In this document: positions 584 to 15,861 of the stretch, in pieces | Position numbering within the stretch: position 1 is the stretch's first letter | Layout of the letters: the number at the start of each line of letters is the position of its first letter | Assembly: GCA_963813065.1 (NCBI GenBank) | Contig: CAWEXP010000009.1 | Span: 1,931-65,930, forward strand | From: Candidatus Kaiserbacteria bacterium | Lineage (GTDB): Bacteria; Patescibacteriota; Minisyncoccia; Phycocordibacterales; Phycocordibacteraceae | DNA: 64,000 bases | Direction of reading: 5' to 3' | Position numbers and translations under genes: made by a program | Notes under the pieces: model-generated | What the model was told of the DNA's origin: nothing | What the model saw: the letters and a program-made list of their open reading frames with translations, nothing else | The model's database searches: none

Positions 584-932
584 ATGATCCCAATTCCGAG
601 CGGCGTTAGGGTATGGATTGCGACTGGTCATACCGACATGCGGCGCGGCATGCAGGGTCTGGCGCTTCAGGTTCAGGAGAGTTCTAAACCGCGATCCCCA
701 TGCCGGCGATCTTTATATCTTCCGAGGTCGTCGCGGCGATCTCGCCAAGATCCTCTGGCACGACGGGATCGGGCTGTCGCTATACGCCAAACGACTGGAC
801 CGCGGAAAGTTCATCTGGCCGTCGGCATCAGGCGCCGCGGTGTCGATCTCGGCGGCGCAGATGGCGTACATGCTCGAAGGGATCGATTGGCGAAATCCGC
901 AACTGACGTGGCGGCCCAAGAGCGCGGGTTGA
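584..932 (+). pseudogene. tnpB: IS66 family TnpB (orfB), frameshifted
   Basis: The N-terminal part MIPIPSGVRVWIATGHTDMRRGMQGLALQVQE reads in the 584 frame. The remainder (...LYIFRGRRGDLAKILWHDGIGLSLYAKRLDRGKF...) reads in the 618 frame. A 1-nt frame change lies near 680-700. Confidence 0.55.
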
Positions 933-1002
933 TGAGCGCGGGCCGAACCGCAAAAATATTGGAGACAGTGCGCATTTTAGGACGCGCCAAATCGCGCGAT
1001 TT

Positions 1003-2473
1003 GTGATTCACTTCGACGCATGGATGCCGCTCGCGCCGTTCTTGCCGCAAGAAAACGCCGCCCTGAAAGCGGCGTTGACCGTTGCGCAGAACAAGGGCCT
1101 AAAGTCGGCGGAGCTGGCGGTCGCGCGCGCGAAGGCGTCAGAAGACATGGCGCTGATCGCGCAGCAGGAGCTTCGGATTGCGAAACTGGAGCGCCAGGTC
1201 TATGGGCAGCGCTCGGAACGCTCGGCGCGCCTGATCGATCAACTGGCGCTCAGCTTCGAAGATCTGGAAGCCAGCGCCACGGAAGACGAGCTGGCGGCAG
1301 AAAAGGCCGTCGCCAGCACGACCACGGTGGCCGGATTTACGCGCAAGCGTCCCGAGCGCAATACATTCCCCGACCATCTTCCCCGCGAGCGCGTGGTGAT
1401 CGATCCGCCGACGGCGTGTGCGTGCTGTGGCGGCAATCGTCTGCGCAAACTTGGCGAGGACGTGACGTGCACGCTGGAATCCATCCCCCGTCAGTGGAAG
1501 GTGGTCGAGACGGTTCGGGAGAAGTTCACCTGTCGGGATTGCGAGAAGATCTCGCAAGCACCGGCACCGTTCCATGTCATCGCGCGGGGCTGGGCGGGGG
1601 CAAGCCTGCTGGCGATGATTGTGTTCGAGAAATTTGGTCAGCACCAGCCTTTGAACCGTCAGGCCGAGCGTTATGCGCTGGAAGGCGTGCCAATCGCGCT
1701 GTCGACCATGGCCGACGCGGTGGGCTCGGTCTGTACGGCGCTCGATCCGCTCCTTCGCCTTGTGGAAACTCATGTGATGGCGGCCGAGCGCCTACATGGT
1801 GACGATACGACCGTGCCGGTTTTGGCTGAGGGCAAGACCGATACTGGGCGATGCTGGATCTATGTTCGAGACGACCAGCCCTTTGGCGGCGTCGGGCCGC
1901 CTGCGGCGATGTTCTACTACTCACGCGATCGCCGGGGCGAGCATCCGCAGGCGCATCTGGCCGGATATGCCGGCATCCTGCAGGCGGACGCCTATGACGG
2001 CTACAACAAGCTCTATCTGGCGGACCGCCGGCCCGGCCCGATCCGGGAGGCGGCGTGTTGGGTGCATGCGCGGCGACCATTCTTCGCCATGGCGGATCTT
2101 GAGGAGAACGCTCGCCGCAAAGCCGCAGGCAAGAAGGAAATCCCTCTATCGCCGATCGCGATCGAGGTCGTGCGCCGCATCGACGCGCTGTTCGAGATCG
2201 AGCGGTCCATCAACGGCAAGAGCGCCGAGGAGCGTATAGCGGTCCGACAAAACTTGAGCCGGCCGCTGGTTGATGATCTTCGGGTCTATATGCGTGAGCA
2301 GGCCGCCGGGCTCTCGCGCGGGCATGACCTGGTCAAGGCCATCAATTACATGCTCAAGCGTTGGCCGGCCTTCACCTTGTTCCTTGAAGATGGCCGCGTT
2401 TGTCTCTCAAACAACGCCGCCGAGCGAGGTCTGCGCGGCATCGCACTTGGGAAGAAAATCATGGCTGTTCTAA
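1003..2473 (+). pseudogene. tnpC: IS66 family transposase TnpC, 3' end disrupted
   Basis: Coiled-coil N-terminus, a CxxC...C zinc motif and a DDE core are typical of IS66 transposase. The conserved tail GRKSWLF-stop is found only in the +1 frame at 2452-2473. The in-frame continuation to 2760 is not transposase-like. Confidence 0.6.
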
Positions 2474-2740
2474 GTCTTCGTCAACGGGATTGTAGTCGTC
2501 TGGTCGAAGGAGTTTTACGACACCTTCACCGACAGCGATGCCCTTGGCGGGCCGATACACCTCGGTGCCTTCGCCGACAAGCTGCACGTACACCACTCGG
2601 ATCTTTTGCTGCGAAGTCTGTCATCGCGCGCTCCAACGGCAGGTCAAAGCATATCCCAGTCGCACTTCAGATTCACGATCACGCCGTCTCTCCATCGCAC
2701 GAATGCGACGCTGTCTTGCCAGCCACGTCATGCGGCGGGC

Positions 2741-2800
2741 AGGCCCGATCCCAAACCTAACCCCGATCCCAAACCCAAACCTAACCCACTCCTACCCGCG
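2741..2800 (+). repeat. short tandem repeat (CCCGATCCCAAACC(C/T)AA units; encodes PNPDPKPKPNP)
   Basis: Direct visual repeat at ccgatcccaaacctaaccccgatcccaaacccaaacctaaccc. Confidence 0.4.
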
Positions 2801-3445
2801 ATTGCCAATCACCGCCCACAGCCAAATCCACGGCAACAGCACGACGACGCGCCACTCGCGCGTGATCGCGTACATCGCACGGAAATCAGAAACACATAGC
2901 TTAGAAGAACAAGATGCGCGCTCTTGTCGACCATGATCTTCGCGCCGCCCCAGACCGCGAAGCCGACCGAGGCGAGTCCGAGAGACAATTGCAAGATTCG
3001 CCACGGGCGCGCGAGATACAGAGAGAGCATCGCCGTCGGCAAGAGCACCAACAAGAAGCCAATCACTCCGAGCACCAAGCGCTCCAACCCGATGAAGCCG
3101 GTGGCGCTTTGTTTGCAAGACCGGGAGTCGACGAATGGGCGGCTTCTTTTTTTGGCTCACAGGTTATTCGTTACGGGCAGGCGTATCGGCGGGGGATTCG
3201 AACGTGGGGGCAATGTTGAAACCGTTTGGGGATCGAGCGCTCCAAGCAGCGAGTGCGCGAGAGCCGATGTCACGCGAACAGGTACAATTTGGCCGAGATC
3301 AACGCGCGATAATCGCGCTCCAAAGGGGACATCAATATGCACGATCTCGTTTCGCTCGCTGCGGCCCATCACGCGGCTTGGGGTTCGCGATAGACGCACG
3401 CCGCCTGGGCGTGATTCGCCTTCGATCAACACATGCGCGCTACTG

Positions 3446-3724
3446 TCAACGAGCGACTGCAGATGCGCCCTCTGTTGTTTGTCGGAATGCTTCAAAAGGC
3501 TGTGCGAGCCGCGATTCTTTGATTTGTTCGGGCACGTTATCGGGCAGGTTCTGGGCGGGGGTTTGCGGGCGAACCGAGTACTTGAACCCAAAGAGCGCGC
3601 TGAATCCCGCTTCGGCGACCAACGAGAGTGTCTGCGCGAAGTCGTCGTCGGTCTCTCCCGAAAAGCCGACGATCACGTCGGTCGAAATCGTGATGTCAGG
3701 GCACGCCGTCTTGAGCGCGCGCAC
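3446..3724 (-). pseudogene. internal fragment of MiaB/RimO-like radical-SAM methylthiotransferase
   Basis: The 92-aa stretch ...TDVIVGFSGETDDDFAQTLSLVAEAGFSALFGFKYSVRPQTPA... matches the C-terminal half of MiaB-family enzymes. There is no N-terminal radical-SAM region. Confidence 0.5.
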
Positions 3725-3754
3725 TCCGTTTAAAATTGTTCGCGCGTGTAGCGA

Positions 3755-4150
3755 CGGATCATGCGACGTAAAATGGCGTTCGAACCCGATTGCACCGGCA
3801 GCTCAGAAATCGCCTTCAAGATCGCGGCATCAATGGCTTTCCAGGCGGCGGCCGAGCGCGCGAAGCCCGTTATCCTCGAGCCGATTATGAAGGTCGAGGT
3901 CGTCGCGCCGGACCAGTTCATGGGCGACATCACCGGCAACATCTCGGGCAAGCGCGGCGCCATCGAGAGCATCGAAGAGCGGGGCATGAACAAGGCGATT
4001 CACGCCAAGGTGCCACTCTCTGAAATGTTCGGCTACACCACCACGCTCCGTTCGATGACCGAGGGCCGCGGCTCGATGACGATGGAATTCGACCACTACG
4101 AGACTGTGCCAAACAATGTGGCGGCGGACATCATTGCTTCGCGCAAATAA
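3755..4150 (+). pseudogene. fusA: 3'-terminal fragment of elongation factor G (fusA), last ~130 aa only
   Basis: ...SSEIAFKIAASMAFQAAAERAKPVILEPIMKVEVVAPDQFMGDITGNISGKRG...VPLSEMFGYTTTLRSMTEGRGS... is the EF-G domain IV/V C-terminus. A stop lies immediately upstream at 3749. The miaB fragment abuts on the opposite strand. Confidence 0.65.
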
Positions 4151-4884: not shown

Positions 4885-6084
<1,200 letters not shown>

Positions 6085-6095
6085 GTCTCAACACA

Positions 6096-6133
6096 CAAAA
6101 TGCAAGACGCGCGCCCCGTTGCGGGGCGCGCGT
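6096..6133 (+). terminator. intrinsic terminator after tuf
   Basis: aagacgcgcgccccgttgcggggcgcgcgtctt followed by a T-run. Confidence 0.7.
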
Positions 6134-6177
6134 CTTGCATTTTTTAGCCCCCTAGTGCATACTCGTGGATACGTTCT

Positions 6178-6573
6178 ATGACAGCGGCACTTACAGAAAA
6201 ACCGAAGGCGAAGCGCGTGGCGAAACCACGCGTGGCTAAGGTTGCTACTGCCGCCGCTCTCCCCGAGGAGCACAAGCTCCGCATCCGCGTTCGCGCCTAC
6301 GAACACAAGATTCTCGACGTCTCGGTCAAGCAGATTATGGATACCGCCGCTCGCTTCGACGCGAAAGTCGTTGGCCCGGTGCCACTCCCGACCGAGATCA
6401 AGCGCTGGACCGTCAATCGCTCCACTTTCGTCCACAAGGACGCGCGCGAGCAGTTCGAGATGCGCATCCACAAGCGCCTTATCGATATTTTGAATCCCTC
6501 GCCGAAAGTTATCGAGGCACTCACTAATTTGAATCTTCCTTCCGGCGTCACGATTGATGTGAAGATGGTTTAA
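6178..6573 (+). CDS. rpsJ: 30S ribosomal protein S10 with ~29-aa basic N-terminal extension
   Basis: ...LRIRVRAYEHKILDVSVKQIMDTAARFDAKVVGPVPLPTEIKRWTVNRSTFVHKDAREQFEMRIHKRLIDI... Confidence 0.9.
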   Translation: MTAALTEKPKAKRVAKPRVAKVATAAALPEEHKLRIRVRAYEHKILDVSVKQIMDTAARFDAKVVGPVPLPTEIKRWTVNRSTFVHKDAREQFEMRIHKRLIDILNPSPKVIEALTNLNLPSGVTIDVKMV

Positions 6574-6593
6574 CCTGAGCGCAGTCGAAGGTT

Positions 6594-6622
6594 CGACAAA
6601 CCGCCCGCAAGGGCGGCTTTGC
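6594..6622 (+). terminator. intrinsic terminator directly after rpsJ
   Basis: aaaccgcccgcaagggcggctttgctattt. Confidence 0.55.
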
Positions 6623-6669
6623 TATTTCCGAAATAGAGCGTACTGTCTCGGCAGGGAAGAGAGGCACAT

Positions 6670-6921
6670 ATGTTCAAACAGCTACAGGCACTATGCCAGT
6701 ACATGGTACGTCGGTGGCGCGAAATGCGTCTCAGACAGCTCGAGAAACGCTTCCAACAGCTGGAGTGGGATTATAACCACTGGAGCTGGATGCGAGACGG
6801 ATCCGGCGCACTCATTGATTGTTGCGACGAGCGTCGAGAGGTTTACAGAAGGCGTGTTCGACTCAGCGACCTTCTCGGTCTGCCGGCACCCCAGCCGATC
6901 GATAATCCATGGGCATTTTAA
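6670..6921 (+). CDS. hypothetical small protein (Trp/Arg-rich), lower GC
   Basis: 83-aa ORF between rpsJ and rplC, followed by the hairpin aaccgggccctcgtggcccggtttt. Confidence 0.3.
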   Translation: MFKQLQALCQYMVRRWREMRLRQLEKRFQQLEWDYNHWSWMRDGSGALIDCCDERREVYRRRVRLSDLLGLPAPQPIDNPWAF

Positions 6922-6976
6922 ACAACCGGGCCCTCGTGGCCCGGTTTTCCATGCTCCCATGATATAATCACCCGCA

Positions 6977-7291
6977 ATGAAGAAGGTGAAACACGCGAAA
7001 AAATACGAGCCAACACTCACCGACGTGCTCGAGGCGGTGCAGGTTGGCTTTGGGAAACATGATGAACGATTTGATTCGATGGATAGACGATTCGATACTA
7101 TAGAACAACGGCTCGATAATCACGACAGATTGCTCAAGTCTCTCCACGGGGGCCAGGAAAATCTGAAAGAGCAGGTGCAGGATATCAACCATCGCCTAAT
7201 CAAGACCCAAAACCGCGTCGAAGATATTGCCGACATTCTCGAGGTTGACCACGAGCGCCGCATCACGCGGCTCGAGAAGGCCCGCGCTTGA
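6977..7291 (+). CDS. hypothetical coiled-coil protein (paralog of 12049..12426)
   Basis: 104 aa MKKV...EPTLTDVLEAV...FD.MDRRFDTIEQRLDNHDR...HERRITRLEK. It shares N-terminal and heptad-like motifs with the ORF at 12049. GC is ~49%. Confidence 0.5.
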   Translation: MKKVKHAKKYEPTLTDVLEAVQVGFGKHDERFDSMDRRFDTIEQRLDNHDRLLKSLHGGQENLKEQVQDINHRLIKTQNRVEDIADILEVDHERRITRLEKARA

Positions 7292-7439
7292 TTTCTGCTC
7301 CGTTTGCATCTTTTAAGGCCATCGTGTAGAGTGCCCTCATCGCTACGAACCCCATGAGACAGCGAAGCTGGCTTTTACGGGGGTCCTATGGCAGAGGGTT
7401 TTTCTAACCCCGCGCCATTTGGCGCGATTTGCTTAAAAA

Positions 7440-8054
7440 ATGAAATTCATCTTGGCTCGGAAGGCGAACATGACCCGTATCTACGGGGAGGATGGTCGTG
7501 CGCTCGCAGGCACCATCCTCGTCGCCGCGCCGCTGACCGTGACGCAGGTCAAGTCGGTCGAGGGCAAGGACGGCTATGCCGCGCTCCAGGTTGGCGAGGG
7601 GACTCGTAAGACCAAGAACATCGGCAAGGCGGTCTTGGGCCACACCAAGGGCAGAGGCTATGCGGCGATTCGCGAGTTCCGCTCTGATGCCTCCGCAGAG
7701 GTTGGGAGCGAGATCAGGGTCGACGCCTTTGCGGTCGGCGATGTGGTCGAGATTTCCGGCTTGTCCAAGGGCAAGGGCTTCGCGGGCGTGGTCAAGCGCC
7801 ACGGCTTCCACGGCGGTCCGCGTAGCCACGGCCAGAAGCACTCCGAGCGCGAGCCAGGTTCGATTGGTGGCTCGAGCGGTCGCGCCGGTGGTCGCGTCGC
7901 GAAGGGTATGCGCATGGCCGGCCGCCTTGGTTCTGATCGCGTCACCGTCAAAAATCTGAAAGTGCTTGCGGTCGATGCAAGCACGAACGAGATCGTCATC
8001 TCCGGCGCGGTGCCGGGCAAGCGCGGCACGCTCCTCGAGATTGTCTCAAAATAA
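7440..8054 (+). CDS. rplC: 50S ribosomal protein L3
   Basis: 204 aa, typical L3 (…GKGFAGVVKRHGF.GGP.SHG…). Confidence 0.9.
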   Translation: MKFILARKANMTRIYGEDGRALAGTILVAAPLTVTQVKSVEGKDGYAALQVGEGTRKTKNIGKAVLGHTKGRGYAAIREFRSDASAEVGSEIRVDAFAVGDVVEISGLSKGKGFAGVVKRHGFHGGPRSHGQKHSEREPGSIGGSSGRAGGRVAKGMRMAGRLGSDRVTVKNLKVLAVDASTNEIVISGAVPGKRGTLLEIVSK

Positions 8055-8064
8055 TTTTCATACT

Positions 8065-8829
8065 ATGGCCAATGCAAAGAAAAAATTGAATAAGAAGCTC
8101 CGCAGTCACGGGAAGCCGAAGTCCGTCGTGACGCCAGGCAAGGAAAAGGCCGCCGTTGCGGGCCCGATTGAACTCGCCGTCTACTCGATGGCAGGGAAGA
8201 AGATTTCGACCATGACTCTTCCCGAGAACCTTTTCGGTGCCAAGTGGCGCCCGGATCTCGTGCACCAAGTGACGACCGCGATGCAGGCCAACTTGCGCCA
8301 GAACCGCGCTCACACCAAGGATCGCGCCGAGGTGTCTGGCGGCGGCAAGAAGCCCTGGAAGCAGAAGGGTACCGGCCAGGCACGTCATGGTTCCTCGCGT
8401 AGCCCAATCTGGCGCCACGGCGGTGTCACTTTCGGTCCGCGCTCGGAGCGTGACTACAGCGAGAAGATTAATAAGAAGATGCGCAACCAGGCGCTCATCT
8501 CGGTACTCTCGCAGAAAGCGAAAGATGGTGAGTTGATTCTTATCGACTCCTTCTCCTTCGAGGCACCGAAGACGGCCCTCGCCATCAAGGCGCTTGGTGC
8601 CATCGCGAAGGCGACCTCGCCCTCCTTGGCGACCAAGCGCGTCAACGCGGCCCTCATCGCCCTCGCCTCGCACTCGGCGAACACCATCAAGTCGTTCCAG
8701 AATATCGGGAGCGTCGCGACCGAGGAGGCACGCAACTTGAATCCGGTCGAGATTCTTTCGCACCGCTATCTCATCATCGAGAACCCGGAAGTCTCGTTCG
8801 CGACACTCTCCGCTCGCCTTAAGAAATAA
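8065..8829 (+). CDS. rplD: 50S ribosomal protein L4 with lysine-rich N-terminal extension
   Basis: MANAKKKLNKK...GGGKKPWKQKGTGQARHGS...; ATG at 8065. Confidence 0.9.
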   Translation: MANAKKKLNKKLRSHGKPKSVVTPGKEKAAVAGPIELAVYSMAGKKISTMTLPENLFGAKWRPDLVHQVTTAMQANLRQNRAHTKDRAEVSGGGKKPWKQKGTGQARHGSSRSPIWRHGGVTFGPRSERDYSEKINKKMRNQALISVLSQKAKDGELILIDSFSFEAPKTALAIKALGAIAKATSPSLATKRVNAALIALASHSANTIKSFQNIGSVATEEARNLNPVEILSHRYLIIENPEVSFATLSARLKK

Positions 8830-8831
8830 GT

Positions 8832-9203
8832 ATGGCTATTTTCTCAACCAAAAAAGAGAGCAAGAAAAAGGAAGCGGCCAAGAAGCCGATTAAGAACGCG
8901 CTCGCGAACAAGCACGCGGCCGGTATCGCGCACGAGGTGATCCAGGCGCCGTGGTTCTCGGAGAAGGCGATTCTCGGCACCGAGAAGGGCGTCTACGTCT
9001 TCGCGATTCCGCGCACGGCGACCAAGGCTGATGTCGCGGGCGCCATCAAGGAGCTCTATAAGGTCTCGCCGCGCAAGATTAACATCGTGAACCTCCCCGG
9101 CGCCCGCGTTTCTCAGCGCCGCCGCGCGGGCCACGCGACGCGCGCACGCCGCCGCAAGGCCTATGTCTACCTGAACTCGGGCGACACCATCAATCTCGCC
9201 TAA
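8832..9203 (+). CDS. rplW: 50S ribosomal protein L23
   Basis: 123 aa, uL23 fold with a basic C-terminal tail. Confidence 0.85.
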   Translation: MAIFSTKKESKKKEAAKKPIKNALANKHAAGIAHEVIQAPWFSEKAILGTEKGVYVFAIPRTATKADVAGAIKELYKVSPRKINIVNLPGARVSQRRRAGHATRARRRKAYVYLNSGDTINLA

Positions 9204-9212
9204 TATTTACTT

Positions 9213-10064
9213 ATGAAATCTTATCGCCCCACCACCAAGAGTCGCCGTAGCATGACCACGCTTCCGTACCGAGAGCTCCTCTCGGGCGATGCGCCGCACA
9301 AGCCTCTCATGAAAGTGCAGAAGCGCGAGGGCGGACGCAACAACTTCGGTCGCATCACGACGCGTCACCAGGGCGGCGGGCACAAGCGCCGCTTCCGCGA
9401 CGTTGATTTCTCGTACGATAAGAAAAATATTCCGGCCAAGATCGAGACGATCGAATACGATCCGTTCCGTTCCGCCTTCATCGCACTGGCGCTCTACGCC
9501 GATGGCTCGCGCCGTTATCACCTCGTGCCCAAGGGGATGCAGGTGGGTGATCGCTTCACGGTTGGCGAGGACGCGCCGATTATTTCGGGCAATCGCGTTC
9601 CGCTCGGCAAGATCCCGGTCGGTACGTTCATCTACAACATCGAGCTCCGCCCCGGCGCGGGCGCCATCCTCGTCCGTTCGGCCGGCAATTTCGCTGAAGT
9701 GGTCGCGCACGATGCGGGCTACGCGCAGGTCAAGCTCCCCTCGACCGAGATTCGCCGCGTCAGCGACCTCTGCTGGGCTTCGATTGGTGCGGTTGGCAAT
9801 GAGGAATACAATCTCGTCGTCATCGGCAAGGCTGGTCGCTCGCGTTGGCTCGGCATCCGCCCGACGGTGCGCGGTACCGCGATGAACCCTGTCGACCATC
9901 CGCACGGCGGCGGCGAAGGACGCCAGGGTCGCGGCCTCAAGCGCGCCAAGAGCATGTGGGGCAAGCCGACGGGCAAGGGGCAGAAGACCCGCACACCGAA
10001 GAAGTACAGCAACGTCTTCATCGTCTCGCGCCGCAAGGTTGGGAAACGAAACAAGAAAGCGTAA
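9213..10064 (+). CDS. rplB: 50S ribosomal protein L2
   Basis: 283 aa, ...GRNNFGRITTRHQGGGHKRRFR...MNPVDHPHGGGEGR... Confidence 0.95.
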   Translation: MKSYRPTTKSRRSMTTLPYRELLSGDAPHKPLMKVQKREGGRNNFGRITTRHQGGGHKRRFRDVDFSYDKKNIPAKIETIEYDPFRSAFIALALYADGSRRYHLVPKGMQVGDRFTVGEDAPIISGNRVPLGKIPVGTFIYNIELRPGAGAILVRSAGNFAEVVAHDAGYAQVKLPSTEIRRVSDLCWASIGAVGNEEYNLVVIGKAGRSRWLGIRPTVRGTAMNPVDHPHGGGEGRQGRGLKRAKSMWGKPTGKGQKTRTPKKYSNVFIVSRRKVGKRNKKA

Positions 10065-10069
10065 TTTCA

Positions 10070-10110
10070 CAAGAAAACCCCCGCGCGCCGTCTCGGCGCG
10101 CGGGGGTTTT
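10070..10110 (+). terminator. intrinsic terminator after rplB (interrupts the S10 operon)
   Basis: aaaacccccgcgcgccgtctcggcgcgcgggggtttt. Confidence 0.7.
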
Positions 10111-10171
10111 CGTTGCAGTTCTTGCATTCTTGCGTTAGGCTCTCGCAAGATGAAGCCATAAGGAGGCCGCA

Positions 10172-10729
10172 ATGAGTGACCATAAAGAGCCTGTAAACCC
10201 AAACTTGGTGCAGGTAGAATTCATTCTTGTTGACATACCTGCCAAGACAGGAATCGAGTCCGATATCCAAACGCTTGCACTCGAGCTGGCCGGCAGGTTG
10301 CCGAAGCTCGTGGTGCGGTTCTTCGATGAGCGGGGACTGGTGACGAAGCTGGTGCAAGACTATGAAGCTACGCAGTCAGCCTACGGAGTGACCATAATCG
10401 AACTGGGGAAGATGAGTTTTGGTGGTCGATTTGCAGTCTCTGAGCAACGCGATGTCGCTCGTCTTTCGCGGAAAATGGACGCACTACGAGGCCAAGCGCG
10501 CTCACTCACAGTCGGCATGTTGAGTAGTGTCACGAAAGGGTCTCGCAGAATCGCCATCGAAGATTCGCCCGATCGACCTTTGCGCATGGCAGTCGAGGCC
10601 GAGTTCGACCACCTGGTCACCACGGCCAAGAAGGCAAAAGATGTGTTCATTTTCGTCTTCAAACCGAACGATCTTCTTTCCGAGAAGAACGAAGCTGTTG
10701 TCAGTATGGTATTTAAGCTCCAGCTGTAG
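10172..10729 (+). CDS. hypothetical protein (island gene, lower GC)
   Basis: An AGGAGG Shine-Dalgarno lies 6 nt upstream. 185 aa. The gene ends in TAG followed by the hairpin CCCCGCTCTGGCGGGGATTTTATTT. Confidence 0.5.
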   Translation: MSDHKEPVNPNLVQVEFILVDIPAKTGIESDIQTLALELAGRLPKLVVRFFDERGLVTKLVQDYEATQSAYGVTIIELGKMSFGGRFAVSEQRDVARLSRKMDALRGQARSLTVGMLSSVTKGSRRIAIEDSPDRPLRMAVEAEFDHLVTTAKKAKDVFIFVFKPNDLLSEKNEAVVSMVFKLQL

Positions 10730-10815
10730 CCCTCTCCCCGCTCTGGCGGGGATTTTATTTGCCTGTAACATGTCCTTGTGGTATAAGATGGCCAGAGCAA
10801 CCGAAGGAGAAACCA

Positions 10816-11199
10816 GTGATTATTCTTGAAAAGATGTCTCGCAAAATCTCGTTCTCTGCGGGCAATCATTTCCGTCGCGCCAATTTTATCGAAGAAATTG
10901 GCGATAGCTCAATGGTGGTGTGCGTTTGGTCGCAGTGTTCATTATGGGATACAGGCGTCTTCCGTGTCAGGCATGTGCCTGTCGTCGACACGGGCGTTGA
11001 AGTGTTCCAGCGTGGTCAGCCGATTCTCGACATCACCCAACAAATCAAGGGATATGCTCCCGCGAGCCTCATCACACCTCTTGAGCACCTCACTACCAAT
11101 GTTTCCTTGTGGAAACTGAAAGTGAGTCTTGAATCATCGGTCCTCGATGCGGTTGGCAAGGTATCGTTCCCAGACTTTCTTAACATCGAGTTCGAATAA
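10816..11199 (+). CDS. hypothetical protein (island gene)
   Basis: A GTG start with a perfect AAGGAG Shine-Dalgarno 7 nt upstream. The ORF track's upstream TTG at 10759 is the less likely start. Terminator CCCCGCGCAATGCGGGGATTTTTATT follows. Confidence 0.4.
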   Translation: MIILEKMSRKISFSAGNHFRRANFIEEIGDSSMVVCVWSQCSLWDTGVFRVRHVPVVDTGVEVFQRGQPILDITQQIKGYAPASLITPLEHLTTNVSLWKLKVSLESSVLDAVGKVSFPDFLNIEFE

Positions 11200-11228
11200 C
11201 GTGCCTGCCCCGCGCAATGCGGGGATTT

Positions 11229-11996
11229 TTATTGTTGATACTGCGGTTGAAGAATGGTGCGAATCTGCGAGACCGGGATGCGGAGCGTCTGCGGGCCCGA
11301 GGAGTACGGCGCGACCTGGTAGGGAGCGAAGAGGATAATGAAATCCTTGTTGTCGAAGAAGAAATTCTGGAAATTAGCGGCTTCGGGCGTCGTGCCGGGG
11401 TTGATGAAGGTCGGGTCAGCGCTATCGCCGATGATGGCGGGGAGCATCTGCCGCGCGAGGGTCGAGAGTGTGCCCAGATAATCGGAACCGCTCAAGAAAA
11501 TATCGCTCAAGGCGAGTGCTTGTCCGGTCGAGGTGTCGAAGGTGAGGGTCGAGAAGCTCGTGTTGGGGTGCGCGCCGAGCGTATCTTCGTAGGTGGTGAA
11601 GATGTAGGAAACCGTGCGGGGCGAAGAAGCGATGAGGTAGGTAATCTGGAGCGATTCTTTGCTTCCTTTATCGAATCCCATCATCGAAATGTCGCGCAGT
11701 GAGAGATGGTCGAAGTTGCCCTGCGTCTTGAAGTCGCTAATAATCCCGCTGACGAGCGATTGGATCTTCGCAATGGCGGCGCGGTCGGCCGCGGCACCCG
11801 CAGTTTCAGCGAGCGGGGTCGAGGTCGGATAGTTGGCGGCAATGTCGTAGTACGGCGCGTGCTCGGTGTCGCCGCCCTCTGGAAGCGTGAGAACGACGGG
11901 CGCCGAGACTGGCGTCGGCTTCACTGCCGCGTAGAACACAATCCCCACCACAATCACGACCAGCACCGCGCCACCGATAATCAGTTCTTTTTTCAT
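11229..11996 (-). CDS. membrane-anchored DUF3298/DUF4163-like (RsiV/PdaC-type) protein
   Basis: An N-terminal TM helix, then ...YYDIAANYP...ITYLIASSPRTVSYIFTTYEDTLGAHPNTSFSTLTFD... Confidence 0.5.
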   Translation of the reverse strand: MKKELIIGGAVLVVIVVGIVFYAAVKPTPVSAPVVLTLPEGGDTEHAPYYDIAANYPTSTPLAETAGAAADRAAIAKIQSLVSGIISDFKTQGNFDHLSLRDISMMGFDKGSKESLQITYLIASSPRTVSYIFTTYEDTLGAHPNTSFSTLTFDTSTGQALALSDIFLSGSDYLGTLSTLARQMLPAIIGDSADPTFINPGTTPEAANFQNFFFDNKDFIILFAPYQVAPYSSGPQTLRIPVSQIRTILQPQYQQ

Positions 11997-12048
11997 GTGA
12001 ACAGTCTAGCAAATCGGGCGAATATGGGCGCGTGATAGAATAACGAGC

Positions 12049-12426
12049 ATGAAGAAGGTCACAAAATCGATCGCGATTAAGGAGCCCACCCTTACGGAGG
12101 TTCTCGCTGTTATGAATGAGCGTTTCGACGTGGCTGAATCTCGTATGGAAAATAGATTTGGTGACATTGAAATCCGCATCGACAAACGTTTCAATTCTTT
12201 GAATGAGCGCTCGAACGGAATCGACGCGCGACTTGGTGTTATTGAAAGGCGGGCTGGTAAAATTGAGAACACTCTCGGCGATATACAAGATGATTTGACT
12301 TCCGCACTTGCCGCCACCGATAACGATGGTTCTGCGATTTTGAATCACGAACACCGCATCGCGCACCTAGAGAAATTGAGCAATATTAAAATCGTTCCAC
12401 CCCGGCATCTCGTCGGTCTTGAATAG
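12049..12426 (+). CDS. hypothetical coiled-coil protein (paralog of 6977..7291)
   Basis: MKKV...KEPTLTEVLAVMNERFD...RFGDIEIRIDKRFNSL...HEHRIAHLEK. A bidirectional terminator with a GATTAC loop follows. Confidence 0.5.
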   Translation: MKKVTKSIAIKEPTLTEVLAVMNERFDVAESRMENRFGDIEIRIDKRFNSLNERSNGIDARLGVIERRAGKIENTLGDIQDDLTSALAATDNDGSAILNHEHRIAHLEKLSNIKIVPPRHLVGLE

Positions 12427-12458
12427 AAAAACCCCGCCGATTACGGCGGGGTATCGTC

Positions 12459-12776
12459 TTACTCTTCGTTTGGGTTATAACTGAGTAAACGACCTCTTCT
12501 GGTTTGCGTGTTGTAAGTGCCTTTCAGGTATAAGTATTCACGATTTTTATACCGCTCAAGGGACGGTGCATTGACCAGATGGCCGTTACATACGATTTCC
12601 CACGGCTCGCCCTCACCAGAGCCTCGCTTAACTATGTCGATGGTTAGACTGTAGACATATTCTCCATCTCCGCCGTGGAAATGGAATTTCTGGGGAACGC
12701 CCTGAGCGAGTCCTGGAATTAACAACCCCCATTGCGAAGGACCGTTCACAACGAGATAATTCACTCCATGGGCCAT
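12459..12776 (-). CDS. hypothetical protein
   Basis: 105-aa ORF convergent with the 12049 ORF. Confidence 0.35.
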   Translation of the reverse strand: MAHGVNYLVVNGPSQWGLLIPGLAQGVPQKFHFHGGDGEYVYSLTIDIVKRGSGEGEPWEIVCNGHLVNAPSLERYKNREYLYLKGTYNTQTRRGRLLSYNPNEE

Positions 12777-12860
12777 CCGACCCTCCTTTGATACATGATC
12801 TCCTCATCGGTGCGGAAATCGAACACCCTGACTCCTCGCGGAGCGACCTACCCATACAGA

Positions 12861-13923
12861 CGCGCATTCTCATATGAATCCGAACACTCGCGGTATTGTG
12901 CGTGCATGAAAAAAGAAACGTTGGAAGCAGCTGAGCACGAGCGAGCGGTCTGAGATTTCAATACTGAAGCGCAAGAAGTATTCGCTCCGTGCGATTGCTC
13001 GAGCTCTTGGCCGCAGTGTTTCCAGCATCTCGGAAGAGTTGAAGAGGAATCGAGTGCGAGGTTTGTATGATGTACAGAAGGCTGCACACAAGGCGTATGC
13101 ACGAAGAAAGTACGCGAAGTATCAAGGCATGAAGATCGTCGGGCATGCGGGTCTGCGTTCACTCGTGGAAGAGCTGTTGTATGACGACCAATCGCCCGAG
13201 AACATCGCCGGAAGAGTCCGGAAGTATGCCAAGCGTCTGCCGACCATCTCGAAAGACGGCGTGTACCGATTCATCAAAAGCGTGTATGGCCGGAGAATTG
13301 AGTCGCATCGGAACGCGCGAAAGCAGAAACGAAGAAAGTATCACCCGAGAGTCGCGGCTCTTTCAGAGCGAACCTTCATCGACAAACGGCCCAGGCATAT
13401 CAACGCTCGTTCGAGGAGCGGAGATGTCGAGGCTGACTTCATTGTCTCGGGCAAGACTGGCAGAGGCATCCTGCTCGTGGTGGTCGACCGGAAGCTCCGC
13501 GTCACGTTCATCGAACGCATTCTCGATGTGTCAGTGGCGAACGTGCACCGGGCATTCCTCCGCATTCAACAGAGATTCCCCGAGCTCCGCACCATCACCA
13601 CTGACAACGATATTTTGTTCCAGATCATCAGGCACTCGCCACTCTTCTGGGGGTGCGCATCTATTTCTGTCGGCCGTATCACTCCTGGGAGAAAGGAACG
13701 GTTGAGAATACAAACGGCGTCATACGCAAAGACATACCGAAAGGCGCAAACATTTCTCGCTATTCAAAGGCATTTATACAAAAGCTCGAGGACAAGCTGA
13801 ACCGGAGGATACTGAAATGCCTCCAATACAAAACTCCGGCGGAAGCATTAGCTGCGGTACGGAAACGAAAAAAGCGCCGAGGCGCATGAAATTCGAGTGT
13901 TCGGATTGAGCCCGTCGAGCGGG
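12861..13923 (+). mobile_element. IS30-family insertion sequence, copy 1 (1063 bp; 3-bp TSD AGA)
   Basis: Ends CGCGCATTCTCATATGAATCCGAACACTCG ... CGAGTGTTCGGATTGAGCCCGTCGAGCGGG share the inverted core AATCCGAACACTCG. The flanks are acAGA|IS|AGAta. The copy is identical to 40332-41395 except for a 1-bp deletion. Confidence 0.85.
12906..13889 (+). pseudogene. IS30 family transposase, copy 1 (extra 1-bp deletion at ~13618 splits the DDE domain)
   Basis: The HTH region ...KKKRWKQLSTSERSEISILKRKKYSLRAIARALGRSVSSISEELKRN... lies in the +1 frame relative to the ATG at 12906. The DDE region ...TTDNDILF follows. This copy reads ttccagatc where copy 2 reads ttccgagatc. Confidence 0.8.
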
Positions 13924-14016
13924 AGATAGGAATTGATTTCAATATACACCCTTATGCAAATCTGTCAAAGTTTTAAAATGGGCTAGGGATTCTCGGGCAA
14001 TTTGGATTTGCCCGAG

Positions 14017-14045
14017 TTGACGGCTGGGAGAGACTCGTGTATCTT
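14017..14045 (+). promoter_or_regulatory. candidate promoter (TTGACG-17-TATCTT) re-initiating transcription of rpsS and downstream genes after the IS30/island insertion
   Basis: -35/-10-like hexamers with 17-nt spacing, 36 nt upstream of rpsS. Confidence 0.35.
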
Positions 14046-14049
14046 GCCT

Positions 14050-14078
14050 CTATCCCGTTCGGCGGGATATTTATTTCA
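14050..14078 (+). promoter_or_regulatory. terminator-like hairpin in the rpsS leader (possible attenuator)
   Basis: CCCGTTCGGCGGGATATTTATTT lies between the candidate promoter and the rpsS ATG. It is the same motif family as the hairpins at 10733 and 11204. Confidence 0.35.
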
Positions 14079-14080
14079 CT

Positions 14081-14485
14081 ATGGCACGATCACTCAAGAA
14101 GGGACCCTACGTGGACGTCAAACTCCTCAAAAAGGTCCAAAAAGCTCAGTCCCGCACCGCGGGGGTGATTAAGACGTGGGCGCGCGGAAGCCGAATCAGC
14201 CCGGAAATGGTTGGTTTCACCTTCGGCGTCCACAACGGCAAGAGCCACATTGAGGTCCTCGTCTCTGAGGAGATGGTGGGGCATCGGCTCGGTGAATTCT
14301 CGCCGACCAAGAAGTTCATCCGCCACGGTGGCAAGATGCAGAAGGAGCTCGAACAGAAGCGCCAGGAGTCGGAGGTCGCCGCCGCCAAGGCCGCCTCTGC
14401 CGCTCCGCCGCTAAGAAATAATTTGTATGAAAGCGACTCTCGAAAGCCACAATCAGTCCCCGCGCAAGGTCCGCCTCGTGGCTGA
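14081..14485 (+). CDS. rpsS: 30S ribosomal protein S19; 3' boundary uncertain (reads 59 nt into rplV)
   Basis: [19 protein letters not shown]...[45 protein letters not shown]... The ORF runs ~40 aa past the usual S19 end to a TGA at 14483. Confidence 0.7.
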
Positions 14486-14744
14486 CCTCGTGAAAGGGAA
14501 GAAGGTCCCGGCGGCGCTCTCGGCGCTCGCGTTCCTCCCCAAGCGCGCGAGCGAGCCAGTCGCCAAGCTCATCAAGAGCGCGGCCGCTAATGCCAAGGAC
14601 AAGGGCGAGAACCCGAAGAGCTCACGATAGGTCAATCACCCGTCGAGAGCGCGGAAATGTCGAAGCGTTTCATGCCGCCACGCCTTCGGCCGCGCCTCGG
14701 CGATTCGCCACAAGAAGAGCCGCATTAAGGTCGTCCTCGCGTAA
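14427..14744 (+). pseudogene. rplV: 50S ribosomal protein L22 with an in-frame TAG at 14628-14630
   Basis: [27 protein letters not shown]...[55 protein letters not shown]. Homology to L22 continues in the same frame across the stop. Confidence 0.7.
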
Positions 14745-14749
14745 CTTCT

Positions 14750-15439
14750 ATGACTCACACCGTACATCCCTATGCGCACCGCCTCGGCATCATCCGCGAC
14801 TGGAAGAGCCGTTGGTTCGCCGCCGACAAGAAGAGCTACCGCGAGAATATCAAGGTAGACGCCGCACTCCGCGCCTTCCTCGAGAAGAAGCTCCACGGTA
14901 CCTACACCTCGGGTATCGACATCGAGCGCTCGGCGACCGAGCTCCGCGTGATCCTGGCCACCGCCCGCCCCGGCTCGTGATTGGTCGCTCGGGCGAGAAC
15001 GCCGCCGAGCTCCGCGCCGAGATCACTAAGGTCGCCCGCAAGGTGGCGCCTCTTGATCGCCGCACGGTGAAGTTCGATATCGTCGAAGTGCGCCAGCCGG
15101 AGACAGACGCGGCGGTCGTCGCGGCGATGGTCGCCGAAGGCCTTGAGAAGCGTATGCCCTTCCGCCGCGTGCTCAAGCAGACGGTCGAGAAAGTGAAGGC
15201 CGTCCGCGAGGTCGAGGGCGTGCGCATCACGATCAGTGGCCGCCTCGGCGGCGCCGAGATGTCGCGCAAAGAGGAAATCAAGCGCGGACGCATCCCGCTC
15301 CAGACCTTCCGTGCGGACATCGACTGGCCTATGGCAAAGCTCCAGCTCCGTACGCGTCATCGACATCAAGGTTTGGATTTACCGCGGCAATATCTTCGCC
15401 GAGAAGAAGGCGGCAAGCCCGAGCCTCTCGCGGGCCTAA
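14750..15439 (+). pseudogene. rpsC: 30S ribosomal protein S3 with at least two frameshifts
   Basis: The N-terminus MTHTVHPYAHRLGIIRDWKSRWFA...ILATARPG ends at 14980. The next segment LVIGRSGENAAELRAEITK...GRLGGAEMSRKEEIKRGRIPLQTFRADID reads in another frame; a 1-nt deletion occurs at ggc(c)tcgtg. The C-terminus VIDIKVWIYRGNIF is in a third frame. Confidence 0.75.
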
Positions 15440-15448
15440 TACATTGCT

Positions 15449-15861
15449 ATGCTTTTCCCTAAAAAGTAAAACACCGCAAGTGGCAGACTCAGCGCAAGAG
15501 CGCTAGCGTCTCGCGCGCCCGGACACGCGCGGTACCTCAGTCTCTTCGGCTCCTTCGGACTCAAGGCGCTCACTTCGGCGCGTGTCACGAGCAACCAGAT
15601 TAAGCGGCGCGCAAAGTGCTCACCCGCGCAGTGGCCAAGAGCGGCAAGCTCTGATCGCATCTTCCCGATCGCCCCGTCACGGCGAAGCCGGCGGAGGTGG
15701 GCATGGGTTCGGGCAAGGGCGACCCGAAGCTCTACGTCTGAGGTGCGCCAGGTCGCGTACTCTTTGAGATTGACGGTGTCAGCGAGGCGGTGGCCCGCGC
15801 ACACCTCATCCAGGCAGGGTCGAAAGTGCCCGTGAAGACGAGCATCGTCGTGCGCCGTTAA
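15449..15861 (+). pseudogene. rplP: 50S ribosomal protein L16 with at least 2-3 frameshifts and two in-frame TGA codons
   Basis: MLFPKK then a stop. VKHRK... is in another frame and ...LSLFGSFGLKALTSARVTSNQI in a third. The segment [63 protein letters not shown]...VKTSIVVRR follows. The first TGA aligns with the conserved Trp of uL16. Confidence 0.7.

Follow-up and report, generated by a model that had tools for sequence, protein, structure and literature searches.

Small genes between rpsJ and rplC of a Candidatus Kaiserbacteria bacterium: a probable inter-operon spacer with a candidate ribosomal protein leader

Genes and signals between rpsJ and rplC

We analysed a stretch of 64,000 nucleotides (64 kb) from a Candidatus Kaiserbacteria bacterium (assembly GCA_963813065.1, contig CAWEXP010000009.1), hereafter the window, in which the ribosomal protein (r-protein) genes rpsJ and rplC are separated by 866 bp holding two small open reading frames (ORFs) of 83 and 104 codons, here named ORF83 and ORF104 (Table 1). 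A reading made from the sequence alone (below, the sequence-only reading) had seen in them an insertion of two genes of low guanine-plus-cytosine (GC) content between the normally adjacent, co-transcribed rpsJ and rplC of the S10 operon. Taken together, the results are probably best explained by an inter-operon spacer that carries accessory genes, not by an interrupted operon, and the break between rpsJ and rplC appears to stem from a reorganisation of the S10 cluster throughout the lineage, not from a recent low-GC insertion.

A GC-rich stem-loop followed by a U tract, the layout of an intrinsic (rho-independent) terminator, stands 3' of the stop codons of both rpsJ and ORF83, and both are therefore treated here as putative terminators. 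The hairpin after rpsJ begins 28 nt after the stop, has a 6-bp stem and a T-rich tail giving an interrupted U tract, and is weaker than the one after ORF83, a GC-rich hairpin of 9 bp (6924-6946) with TTTT behind it, which folds at -17.3 kcal/mol (z -3.4) and is conserved in the nearest relative. These two hairpins had been predicted correctly, while a third one expected after ORF104 is missing: folding of positions 7292-7334 gave no significant structure. Since ORF104 lacks a terminator, its transcript should continue through the promoter and leader of rplC. With respect to base composition, the predicted contrast (about 50% against about 62% GC) holds in direction and not in size, as ORF83 (54.4%) and ORF104 (51.4%), compared with rpsJ (56.3%), rplC (63.6%) and tuf (62.2%), deviate weakly from the background of the window's ORFs (56.7±3.8%) and are low-normal values, not outliers.

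The 16-nt core of the hairpin after rpsJ, CCGCCCGCAAGGGCGG, occurs once in the 64-kb window (6601-6616), so the hairpin is not a genome-wide repeat. Identical cores were seen in three other loci, referred to like all loci below by our handles: L003 (5897-5912), where the core again follows rpsJ, and L006 (204-219 and 602-617) and L118 (1205-1220), where it flanks a type-A coiled-coil gene on one or both sides. In relatives the core grows to a palindrome of ~34 nt with ACACAC/GTGTGT arms.

A conserved promoter-like element and leader precede rplC

The sequence-only reading had reasoned that rplC would need either read-through or a new promoter. A separate promoter-like element, TTGCAT-17-TAGAGT, is indeed present, which would leave rplC without reliance on read-through. 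It belongs to a conserved stretch of 170 nt upstream of rplC that reads, in order, TTGCAT, 17 nt, T(G)TAGAGT, ~10 nt, GCUAnG, a hairpin, CCnAUGGC and a GC hairpin with a U tract. The promoter-like element is conserved in the window, L002, L003, L007, L009, L010, L013, L015, L021, L036 and others, and the leader occurs in the window as well as in L002, L003, L006, L007, L009, L010, L013, L015, L021, L023, L031, L036, L046 and L111. Promoter and leader are kept whatever lies upstream, be it ORF104 (window), ORF83 (L002), an ORF of 922 aa (L003), an ORF for a peptidoglycan (PG)-binding protein (L006), a PaaX-like gene (L007) or the rpsJ terminator itself (L015).

The terminator-like hairpin with its U-rich tract (7411-7434) ends 5 nt before the rplC start codon. 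By inspection, a GC-rich hairpin and U-rich tract recur in ~12 of the 14 leaders with differing stem sequences; in several relatives the loop of this attenuator-like hairpin repeats CGCGAUUUGCU, found 3' of the stem, which hints at alternative pairings. A motif-anchored alignment was adopted for the analysis of base pairing, since MAFFT/RNAalifold runs on full leaders misaligned the variable hairpin tips; it covered 14 loci (13 distinct sequences) and 10 pairs, with the variable tip masked with N. In this alignment 88.5% of the cells were paired, compared with 25-50% when the partner was slid, and three pairs (14 cells) showed changes on both sides, a score reached by none of 500 shuffles. The outer helix and the lower part of the hairpin, including UA/AU exchanges, were likewise recovered by RNAalifold from the raw MAFFT alignment, and the unconstrained minimum free energy fold of 7335-7442 reproduced all three hairpins (z -2.2). 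A loose regular expression of the motif matched 15 times within 90 nt before rplC and at the contig end of L006, as well as 17 times at unrelated positions in the other 2.9 Mb covered by the scan, and several of these 17 fall within the coding sequence of rplC.

No r-protein leader of Rfam 15 matched the whole window at the gathering threshold or positions 6050-7500 at E<=5, L4-Archaeoglobi included. A conserved, covarying structure in the 5' untranslated region of an r-protein operon is one of the defining features of such leaders, and the RNA upstream of rplC has this structure. Hence it may be regarded as a new candidate r-protein leader, apparently confined to the Parcubacteria/Paceibacteria-type clade.

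In the S10 operon of Escherichia coli, ribosomal protein L4 causes termination at a hairpin of the S10 leader. The cluster described here shares with it the gene order (rpsJ, rplC, rplD, rplW, rplB, rpsS onward) and a structured 5' leader that ends in a terminator-like hairpin before the first cistron of the L4-encoding unit. It differs in that the leader stands before rplC and not before rpsJ, which forms a separate unit with its own terminator, in that rpsS is preceded by a promoter-like element and a small leader of its own, and in the lack of any sequence or Rfam similarity. By analogy, the rplC leader most likely acts as an attenuator in autoregulation, sensing one of the r-proteins that the unit encodes, for which L4 is the prime candidate. 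Its closest published analogue by position is L4-Archaeoglobi, an r-leader candidate directly upstream of rplC-rplD-rplW-rplB for which L4 was likewise proposed as the ligand by analogy (Eckert & Weinberg, 2020, PMC7247131); this motif is archaeal and a different one, whereas the leader of the window is restricted to the clade named above. Our literature searches turned up neither a split S10 operon nor an rplC leader described for bacteria of the candidate phyla radiation (CPR).

The same spacer in relatives carries different genes

A scan of GTDB anchored on rplC yielded 80 loci, in which gaps were measured by tblastn. In the 13 measurable loci among the 14 that bear the leader, rpsJ and rplC are invariably apart, by 162-3401 bp (median 846), whereas in the remaining Paceibacteria-type loci the two genes are often still contiguous (median 74 bp). 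The picture of a classical S10 pair that has been interrupted in this one genome therefore had to be abandoned, and the window itself combines its 866-bp gap with two hairpin terminators and the conserved promoter-like element. The junctions within the rplC-rplB unit stay tight. A second gap separates rplB from rpsS. Of the Paceibacteria-type loci in which it could be measured, 35 of 38 have 300 bp or more there, compared with 2 of 32 outgroup loci (outgroup median 22 bp); in the window it amounts to ~4 kb (10065-14080). Because rpsJ, rplC and rpsS each have promoter-like elements of their own, we regard the cluster as a set of separate units and its two spacers as true inter-operon DNA.

The content of the rpsJ|rplC spacer differs from genome to genome. 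In the nearest relative, L002 (95% amino acid identity in rpsJ and 87% in rplC), rpsJ and its terminator are followed by a homolog of ORF83, the same terminator and rplC with the same promoter and leader. The order in L003 (GCA_021835755.1) is rpsJ, hairpin, a coiled-coil gene with 59% identity to ORF104, the 922-aa ORF and rplC; that in L006 is the end of rpsJ, hairpin, a coiled-coil gene (62%), a further hairpin, the PG-binding ORF (430 aa) and, where the contig ends, the leader motif of rplC. Elsewhere the cargo consists of a sugar transferase gene, the PaaX-like gene (L007), orphan ORFs or nothing at all, as in L015, whose gap of 162 bp contains only terminator, promoter and leader. Comparison with relatives, which the sequence-only reading had named as decisive between an insertion and an ancestral feature, thus gave a divided answer: the site is shared and so is each gene singly (ORF83 in L002, ORF104 in L003 and L006), while no other organism, the GTDB rplC scan included, was found with both ORF83 and ORF104 at the site.

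Chromosomal hotspots are known in which accessory genes lie between conserved core genes. The rpsJ|rplC spacer resembles them in its conserved flanks (the rpsJ terminator and the rplC promoter and leader), its variable content, and the toxin-antitoxin-like genes and insertion sequences (IS) in its sister spacer; it differs in lying inside an r-protein operon that is single in most bacteria, with no integrase or tRNA associated.

ORF83 is a real gene with one homolog

ORF83 is a real gene under purifying selection. Its single homolog in a set of 5.8 billion proteins, P0026 (74% identity), is the one located at the same site in L002, and a codon-level comparison of the two gave in-frame indels and a ratio of nonsynonymous to synonymous substitution rates (dN/dS) of 0.09 at a dS of 1.56, similar to the values of rpsJ (0.07) and rplC (0.12) for the same pair of genomes. 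The L002 counterpart of its weak promoter-like element reads TTGCTT-16-TATAAG. The exact protein is on record from the Logan assembly only, so ORF83 is apparently unannotated in the deposited genome, while the ORF104 protein is recorded in NCBI and ENA too.

AlphaFold2 models ORF83 as a helical hairpin (helices 2-39 and 45-69) with a predicted local distance difference test score (pLDDT) of 84.6. No match to ORF83 was found in Pfam, PHROG, PADLOC or NCBIfam, and a Foldseek comparison of the model with the PDB and BFVD gave nothing below E 0.4. The folding and profile searches suggested by the sequence-only reading thus provided folds for both small proteins and nothing specific about either of them.

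ORF104 belongs to a coiled-coil family with a predicted leaderless design

The claim of an insertion retains its footing in ORF104, which is present or absent between close relatives. L002 is devoid of a segment of ~355 bp with this gene, and manual alignment places the extra DNA of the window from ~6951, after the T run of the ORF83 terminator, to ~7303, before the -35 box of rplC. A repeat search over 6500-7500 detected no terminal inverted or direct repeats or target site duplications bounding the segment, and no recombinase is adjacent. An insertion of the IS type or of the miniature inverted-repeat type was accordingly rejected for this segment; the window does contain IS30 and IS66 copies, but at other places. 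A type II toxin-antitoxin pair formed by ORF83 and ORF104 was rejected as well, given the strong terminator between them and the occurrence of each alone in relatives, and neither has a toxin or antitoxin domain in Pfam, PADLOC or NCBIfam.

ORF104 is likewise a real gene, with homologs in 24 clusters of the 5.8-billion-protein set, the named ones being Candidatus Parcubacteria or Paceibacterota, and an exhaustive search gathered 72 representatives of the family at E<=1e-10. The coiled coil read from its sequence is supported by AlphaFold2, which predicts one uninterrupted helix over residues 14-103 (pLDDT 87). The paralog noted at 12049 was verified, too: ORF125 matches ORF104 by BLASTP (E 5e-9, 34% identity) and the same family hidden Markov model (HMM; E 1e-28), and the two are the sole copies of the family in the window. 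In the family alignment the N terminus is conserved as MKKxKKS..EPTLxDVLEAVQxGF, the xRFxxhD heptads vary in number, and the core, also conserved, ends in DHERRIxxLEKA.

Database comparisons of the family remained generic. ORF104 and ORF125 have only sub-threshold matches to generic coiled coils in Pfam, PHROGs, PADLOC and NCBIfam, and a PDB profile search of the family returned generic coiled coils only (spike HR1, sigma-1, GCN4 fusions and Giovannonibacteria 7o97, E 0.0045). YibL (NCBIfam NF008244) was discarded at 16.4 bits (E 0.0099) against a cut-off of 110 bits. With SlyX (COG2900) and ZapB, small coiled-coil proteins, the family shares a cytoplasmic product of ~70-130 aa predicted as one long helix, and one of its members is labelled 'uncharacterized coiled-coil protein SlyX' by JGI. 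However, no Pfam SlyX match was obtained for the family at E<=0.1, only generic coiled-coil families, and the motifs EPTLxDVLEAVQxGF and DHERRIxxLEKA, the variable heptads and the leaderless promoter architecture set it apart from both.

This architecture consists of an extended -10 box, TGnTAnnnT, that ends 6-8 nt before the start codon. For ORF104, 8 nt separate the end of the box TGATATAAT from the ATG, and a Shine-Dalgarno sequence is missing; in ORF125 the corresponding box lies 7 nt before the ATG. Of 11 look-up loci, nine carry the design, and two have the box within an annotated N-terminal extension, in which AYDII corresponds to TATGATATAAT. Among metagenome loci 18 of 25 show the design, versus 7 of 362 control ORFs. 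Features of leaderless genes are thus present, which suggests that the family is expressed independently from leaderless mRNA, with transcription start sites that we infer from the position of the box.

In the rpsJ|rplC spacer, members of the family comprise ORF104 and those of L003-L005 and L006, while the rplB|rpsS spacer houses ORF125 and the members in L007/L008/L094, L009, L010-L012, L095-L097, L099, L101, L109, L111, L112 and L116, often beside a membrane-anchored DUF3298 gene on the opposite strand. Elsewhere, members follow a HicB-like gene (L118) or an aminotransferase-like gene (L121) and precede an NTPase_I-T/DUF6884 gene (L117) or a methyltransferase gene (L119/L120), and distant members adjoin GroEL, TPR, ScpA, RNR and PLD genes. 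The family is absent from all 80 GTDB species-representative loci, including those with 70-74% rplC identity. On this distribution it appears clade-restricted, patchy and non-essential, without a constant functional neighbour; its concentration in S10 spacers is real, and the simplest account is that the members descend from an old insertion into the rplB|rpsS spacer and were occasionally relocated.

A search of 2.9 million viral contigs gave no match to ORF83 and one weak match to the coiled-coil family (L124 5001-5291, IMGVR_UViG_3300028610_001671; 29% identity, E 1e-5 relative to the candidate stretches), and a phage origin of either was rejected.

Alternative explanations

Two further explanations were weighed, both of them unlikely in our judgement and neither ahead of the other. 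According to the first, ORF104, ORF125 and their relatives constitute a lineage-specific factor associated with the ribosome or translation that is kept in the r-protein cluster for co-regulation, and ORF83 may be another one. It draws on the position of both window copies in the two spacers of the S10 cluster, on the fact that most loci of determinable context place the gene between rplB and rpsS or just after rpsJ, and on the reduced and atypical ribosomes of CPR bacteria (PMC9297842). Yet the family is patchy and missing from all 80 GTDB representative loci, ORF104 is missing from L002, other members sit beside GroEL, RNR, ScpA, TPR, methyltransferase and NTPase genes, each gene has its own promoter-like element instead of being embedded in an r-protein transcript, and the sole 'ribosome-associated' match, YibL, falls far short of its cut-off, while the common rplB|rpsS position is explicable by vertical inheritance of one ancestral insertion. 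In its most far-reaching form, equally doubtful to us, the family would be a Paceibacteria-specific factor of translation or the ribosome, acting for instance in assembly, hibernation or tethering and kept in the spacers of the split S10 cluster. Leaderless mRNA would couple its production to the state of the ribosomes, and in the rplC leader CPR bacteria alone would possess an attenuator of the L4 type.

The second explanation makes ORF104, with or without ORF83, a cargo or boundary gene of a mobile element, or of an island for defence or of the toxin-antitoxin kind, whose targets are sites close to terminators, 3' of strongly expressed genes. Presence or absence between close relatives would fit such an element, as would the unrelated cargo preceded by type-A members (the 922-aa ORF, the PG-binding protein, NTPase_I-T/DUF6884, methyltransferase), the HigB/HigA-like and HicB-like genes that adjoin family members, the IS30 and IS66 elements in the same window, and the palindromic hairpin found on both sides of the gene in L006 and L118. 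Against it stand the lack of an adjacent recombinase and of terminal repeats around the ORF104 segment, the PADLOC and PHROG matches that amount to generic coiled-coil noise, the near absence of the two genes from viral contigs, and the strong terminator between two genes that occur singly in relatives and thus do not form a two-gene module.

That the interval is an assembly artefact or non-coding ORF-like noise is highly improbable, for although frameshifts in rpsC, rplV and rplP and a truncated fusA gene next to an IS66 element suggest local errors, a separately assembled Logan contig (L001) is base-for-base identical over 6442-7714 (1273 bp, reaching from the 3' end of rpsJ into the 5' part of rplC), and both ORFs have same-site homologs in other metagenomes, together with purifying selection or conservation across a family.

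Several points weigh against an inter-operon spacer with accessory genes. The coiled-coil genes of ~15 distinct loci, and both copies of the window, lie inside the r-protein cluster, which could mean a translation-linked role. The leader alignment was anchored by hand with its tip masked, so that its numbers lean towards structure; a simple promoter scan listed neither the rplC nor the ORF104 element, and promoters, leaderless starts and termination were all read from sequence and conservation. Besides, the evidence on ORF83 is built on a single homolog, and the frameshifts mentioned above reflect imperfect assembly quality elsewhere in the window.

Table 1. Features of the rpsJ-rplC interval and its surroundings (positions in the window).
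Feature	Position	Strand	Remarks
tuf	4888-6084		ORF listing and Pfam scans
Perfect 22-bp GC-rich palindrome/hairpin in tuf-rpsJ spacer	6097-6142	.	-43.4 kcal/mol, z -8.9
rpsJ promoter-like element, TTGCAT (6135-6140)-17-TG-CATACT (6158-6163), i.e. TTGCAT-17-TGCATACT	6135-6163	+	Read from sequence; same arrangement in L002
rpsJ (ribosomal protein S10), 131 aa	6178-6573	+	Pfam PF00338 Ribosomal_S10, E 1e-33
Terminator-like hairpin after rpsJ, CCGCCC-GCAA-GGGCGG (6601-6616), then CTTTGCTATTT	6601-6627	+	
Weak candidate ORF83 promoter, TTGCTA-16-TACTGT, and GA-rich Shine-Dalgarno-like stretch (6655-6664)	6619-6664	+	Read from sequence
ORF83, orphan small protein	6670-6921	+	
Intrinsic-terminator-like hairpin after ORF83, AACCGGGCC-CTCGT-GGCCCGGTT and T run	6924-6950	+	
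ORF104 extended -10 box, TGATATAAT	6960-6968	+	
ORF104, predicted single-helix coiled-coil protein	6977-7291	+	
rplC promoter-like element, TTGCAT (7304-7309)-17-TAGAGT (7327-7332)	7304-7332	+	
rplC leader, 5' domain: GCUACG, hairpin, CCUAUGGC	7342-7392	+	
rplC leader, 3' part: small hairpin (7396-7410), CGCGCC-ATTT-GGCGCG (7411-7426), ATTTGCTT	7396-7434	+	
rplC (ribosomal protein L3)	7440-8054	+	Pfam Ribosomal_L3; first gene of rplC-rplD-rplW-rplB unit (to 10064)
rplD	~8065-8829		
rplW	8832-9203		
rplB	9213-10064		
Orphan ORF, 185 aa	10172-10729		rplB|rpsS spacer
Orphan ORF, 146 aa	10759-11199		rplB|rpsS spacer
Membrane-anchored DUF3298 gene	11229-11996	-	rplB|rpsS spacer
ORF125 extended -10 box, TGATAGAAT	12033-12041	+	
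ORF125, ORF104 paralog	12049-12426	+	rplB|rpsS spacer; element 12033-12426, terminator 12431-12452
Orphan ORF, 105 aa	12459-12776	-	rplB|rpsS spacer
IS30-family transposase, frameshifted	13039-13889		rplB|rpsS spacer
rpsS and remaining S10/spc genes	from 14081		

Other features of the window

The palindrome between tuf and rpsJ resembles a terminator on either strand, and the -35 box of rpsJ (TTGCAT) overlaps with its 3' arm. The three ORFs of 185, 146 and 105 aa in the rplB|rpsS spacer are orphans by blastp against all fetched loci. Upstream of rpsS we observed a TGTCAA(A/G)GTT box (13963-13972), TTGACG-17-TATCTT (14017-14045) and a hairpin AUCCCG-UUCG-GCGGGAU (14052-14068), and the same layout is present in L007, L009, L010, L013, L014, L015 and L021. 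In L007 (4067-4702; also L008, 597-1232) a pair of Gp49 (HigB-like) and HTH_31 (HigA-like) genes lies just upstream of the coiled-coil gene, consistent with the rplB|rpsS spacer being a hotspot for accessory genes.

Further along the window, rpsC matches in three frames (14750-14974, 14968-15327 and 15356-15409), the rplV match is limited to residues 4-103 and overlaps the rpsS ORF, and rplP gives two overlapping matches in different frames. These frameshifts (14433-15860) are probably indel errors of sequencing or assembly and not biology. At the other end, an IS66-family element (TnpB_IS66 584-1006; DDE transposase 1003-2760) lies upstream of a fusA remnant (3800-4147) whose coding capacity is limited to the C-terminal ~116 residues of EF-G; either fusA was disrupted or duplicated, or the contig was mis-joined at a repeat (584-4150).

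Proposed organisation and significance

We propose that in this Paceibacteria-type CPR clade the S10 cluster would be organised as the separate units tuf; rpsJ; rplC-rplD-rplW-rplB; and rpsS onward. The rpsJ unit would end at its hairpin, and rplC would be driven by its own conserved promoter-like element through a structured leader of ~100 nt, so that the DNA in between could tolerate the gain and loss of genes and serve as a variable landing site. The two genes held there would be independent accessory genes. ORF83, an orphan gene for a predicted helical-hairpin protein with its own putative terminator, is shared with the nearest relative, whereas ORF104 would form a ~355-bp module of extended -10 promoter and leaderless ORF that is gained or lost between close relatives. 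Its product, a predicted single helix of ~90 residues, presumably assembles into coiled-coil oligomers, and its transcripts would extend across the promoter and leader of rplC and stay subject to control by the latter. Our best guess is that the ORF83 and ORF104 proteins are dispensable, non-enzymatic structural or adaptor proteins and not components of the ribosome.

CPR bacteria are, to our knowledge, uncultured and their gene regulation is almost unknown, and we know of no regulatory elements mapped in this lineage. No major paradigm is changed by the present analysis; what is gained are concrete candidate regulatory elements, namely a promoter consensus, leaderless starts and an attenuator. 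A whole clade appears to have split the near-universal S10 operon into separately promoted units, and the previously undescribed covarying leader with its attenuator-like hairpin is a candidate for r-protein feedback control in CPR bacteria. The spacers between these units may act as landing sites for small self-promoted genes, including a coiled-coil family with a uniform leaderless promoter design.

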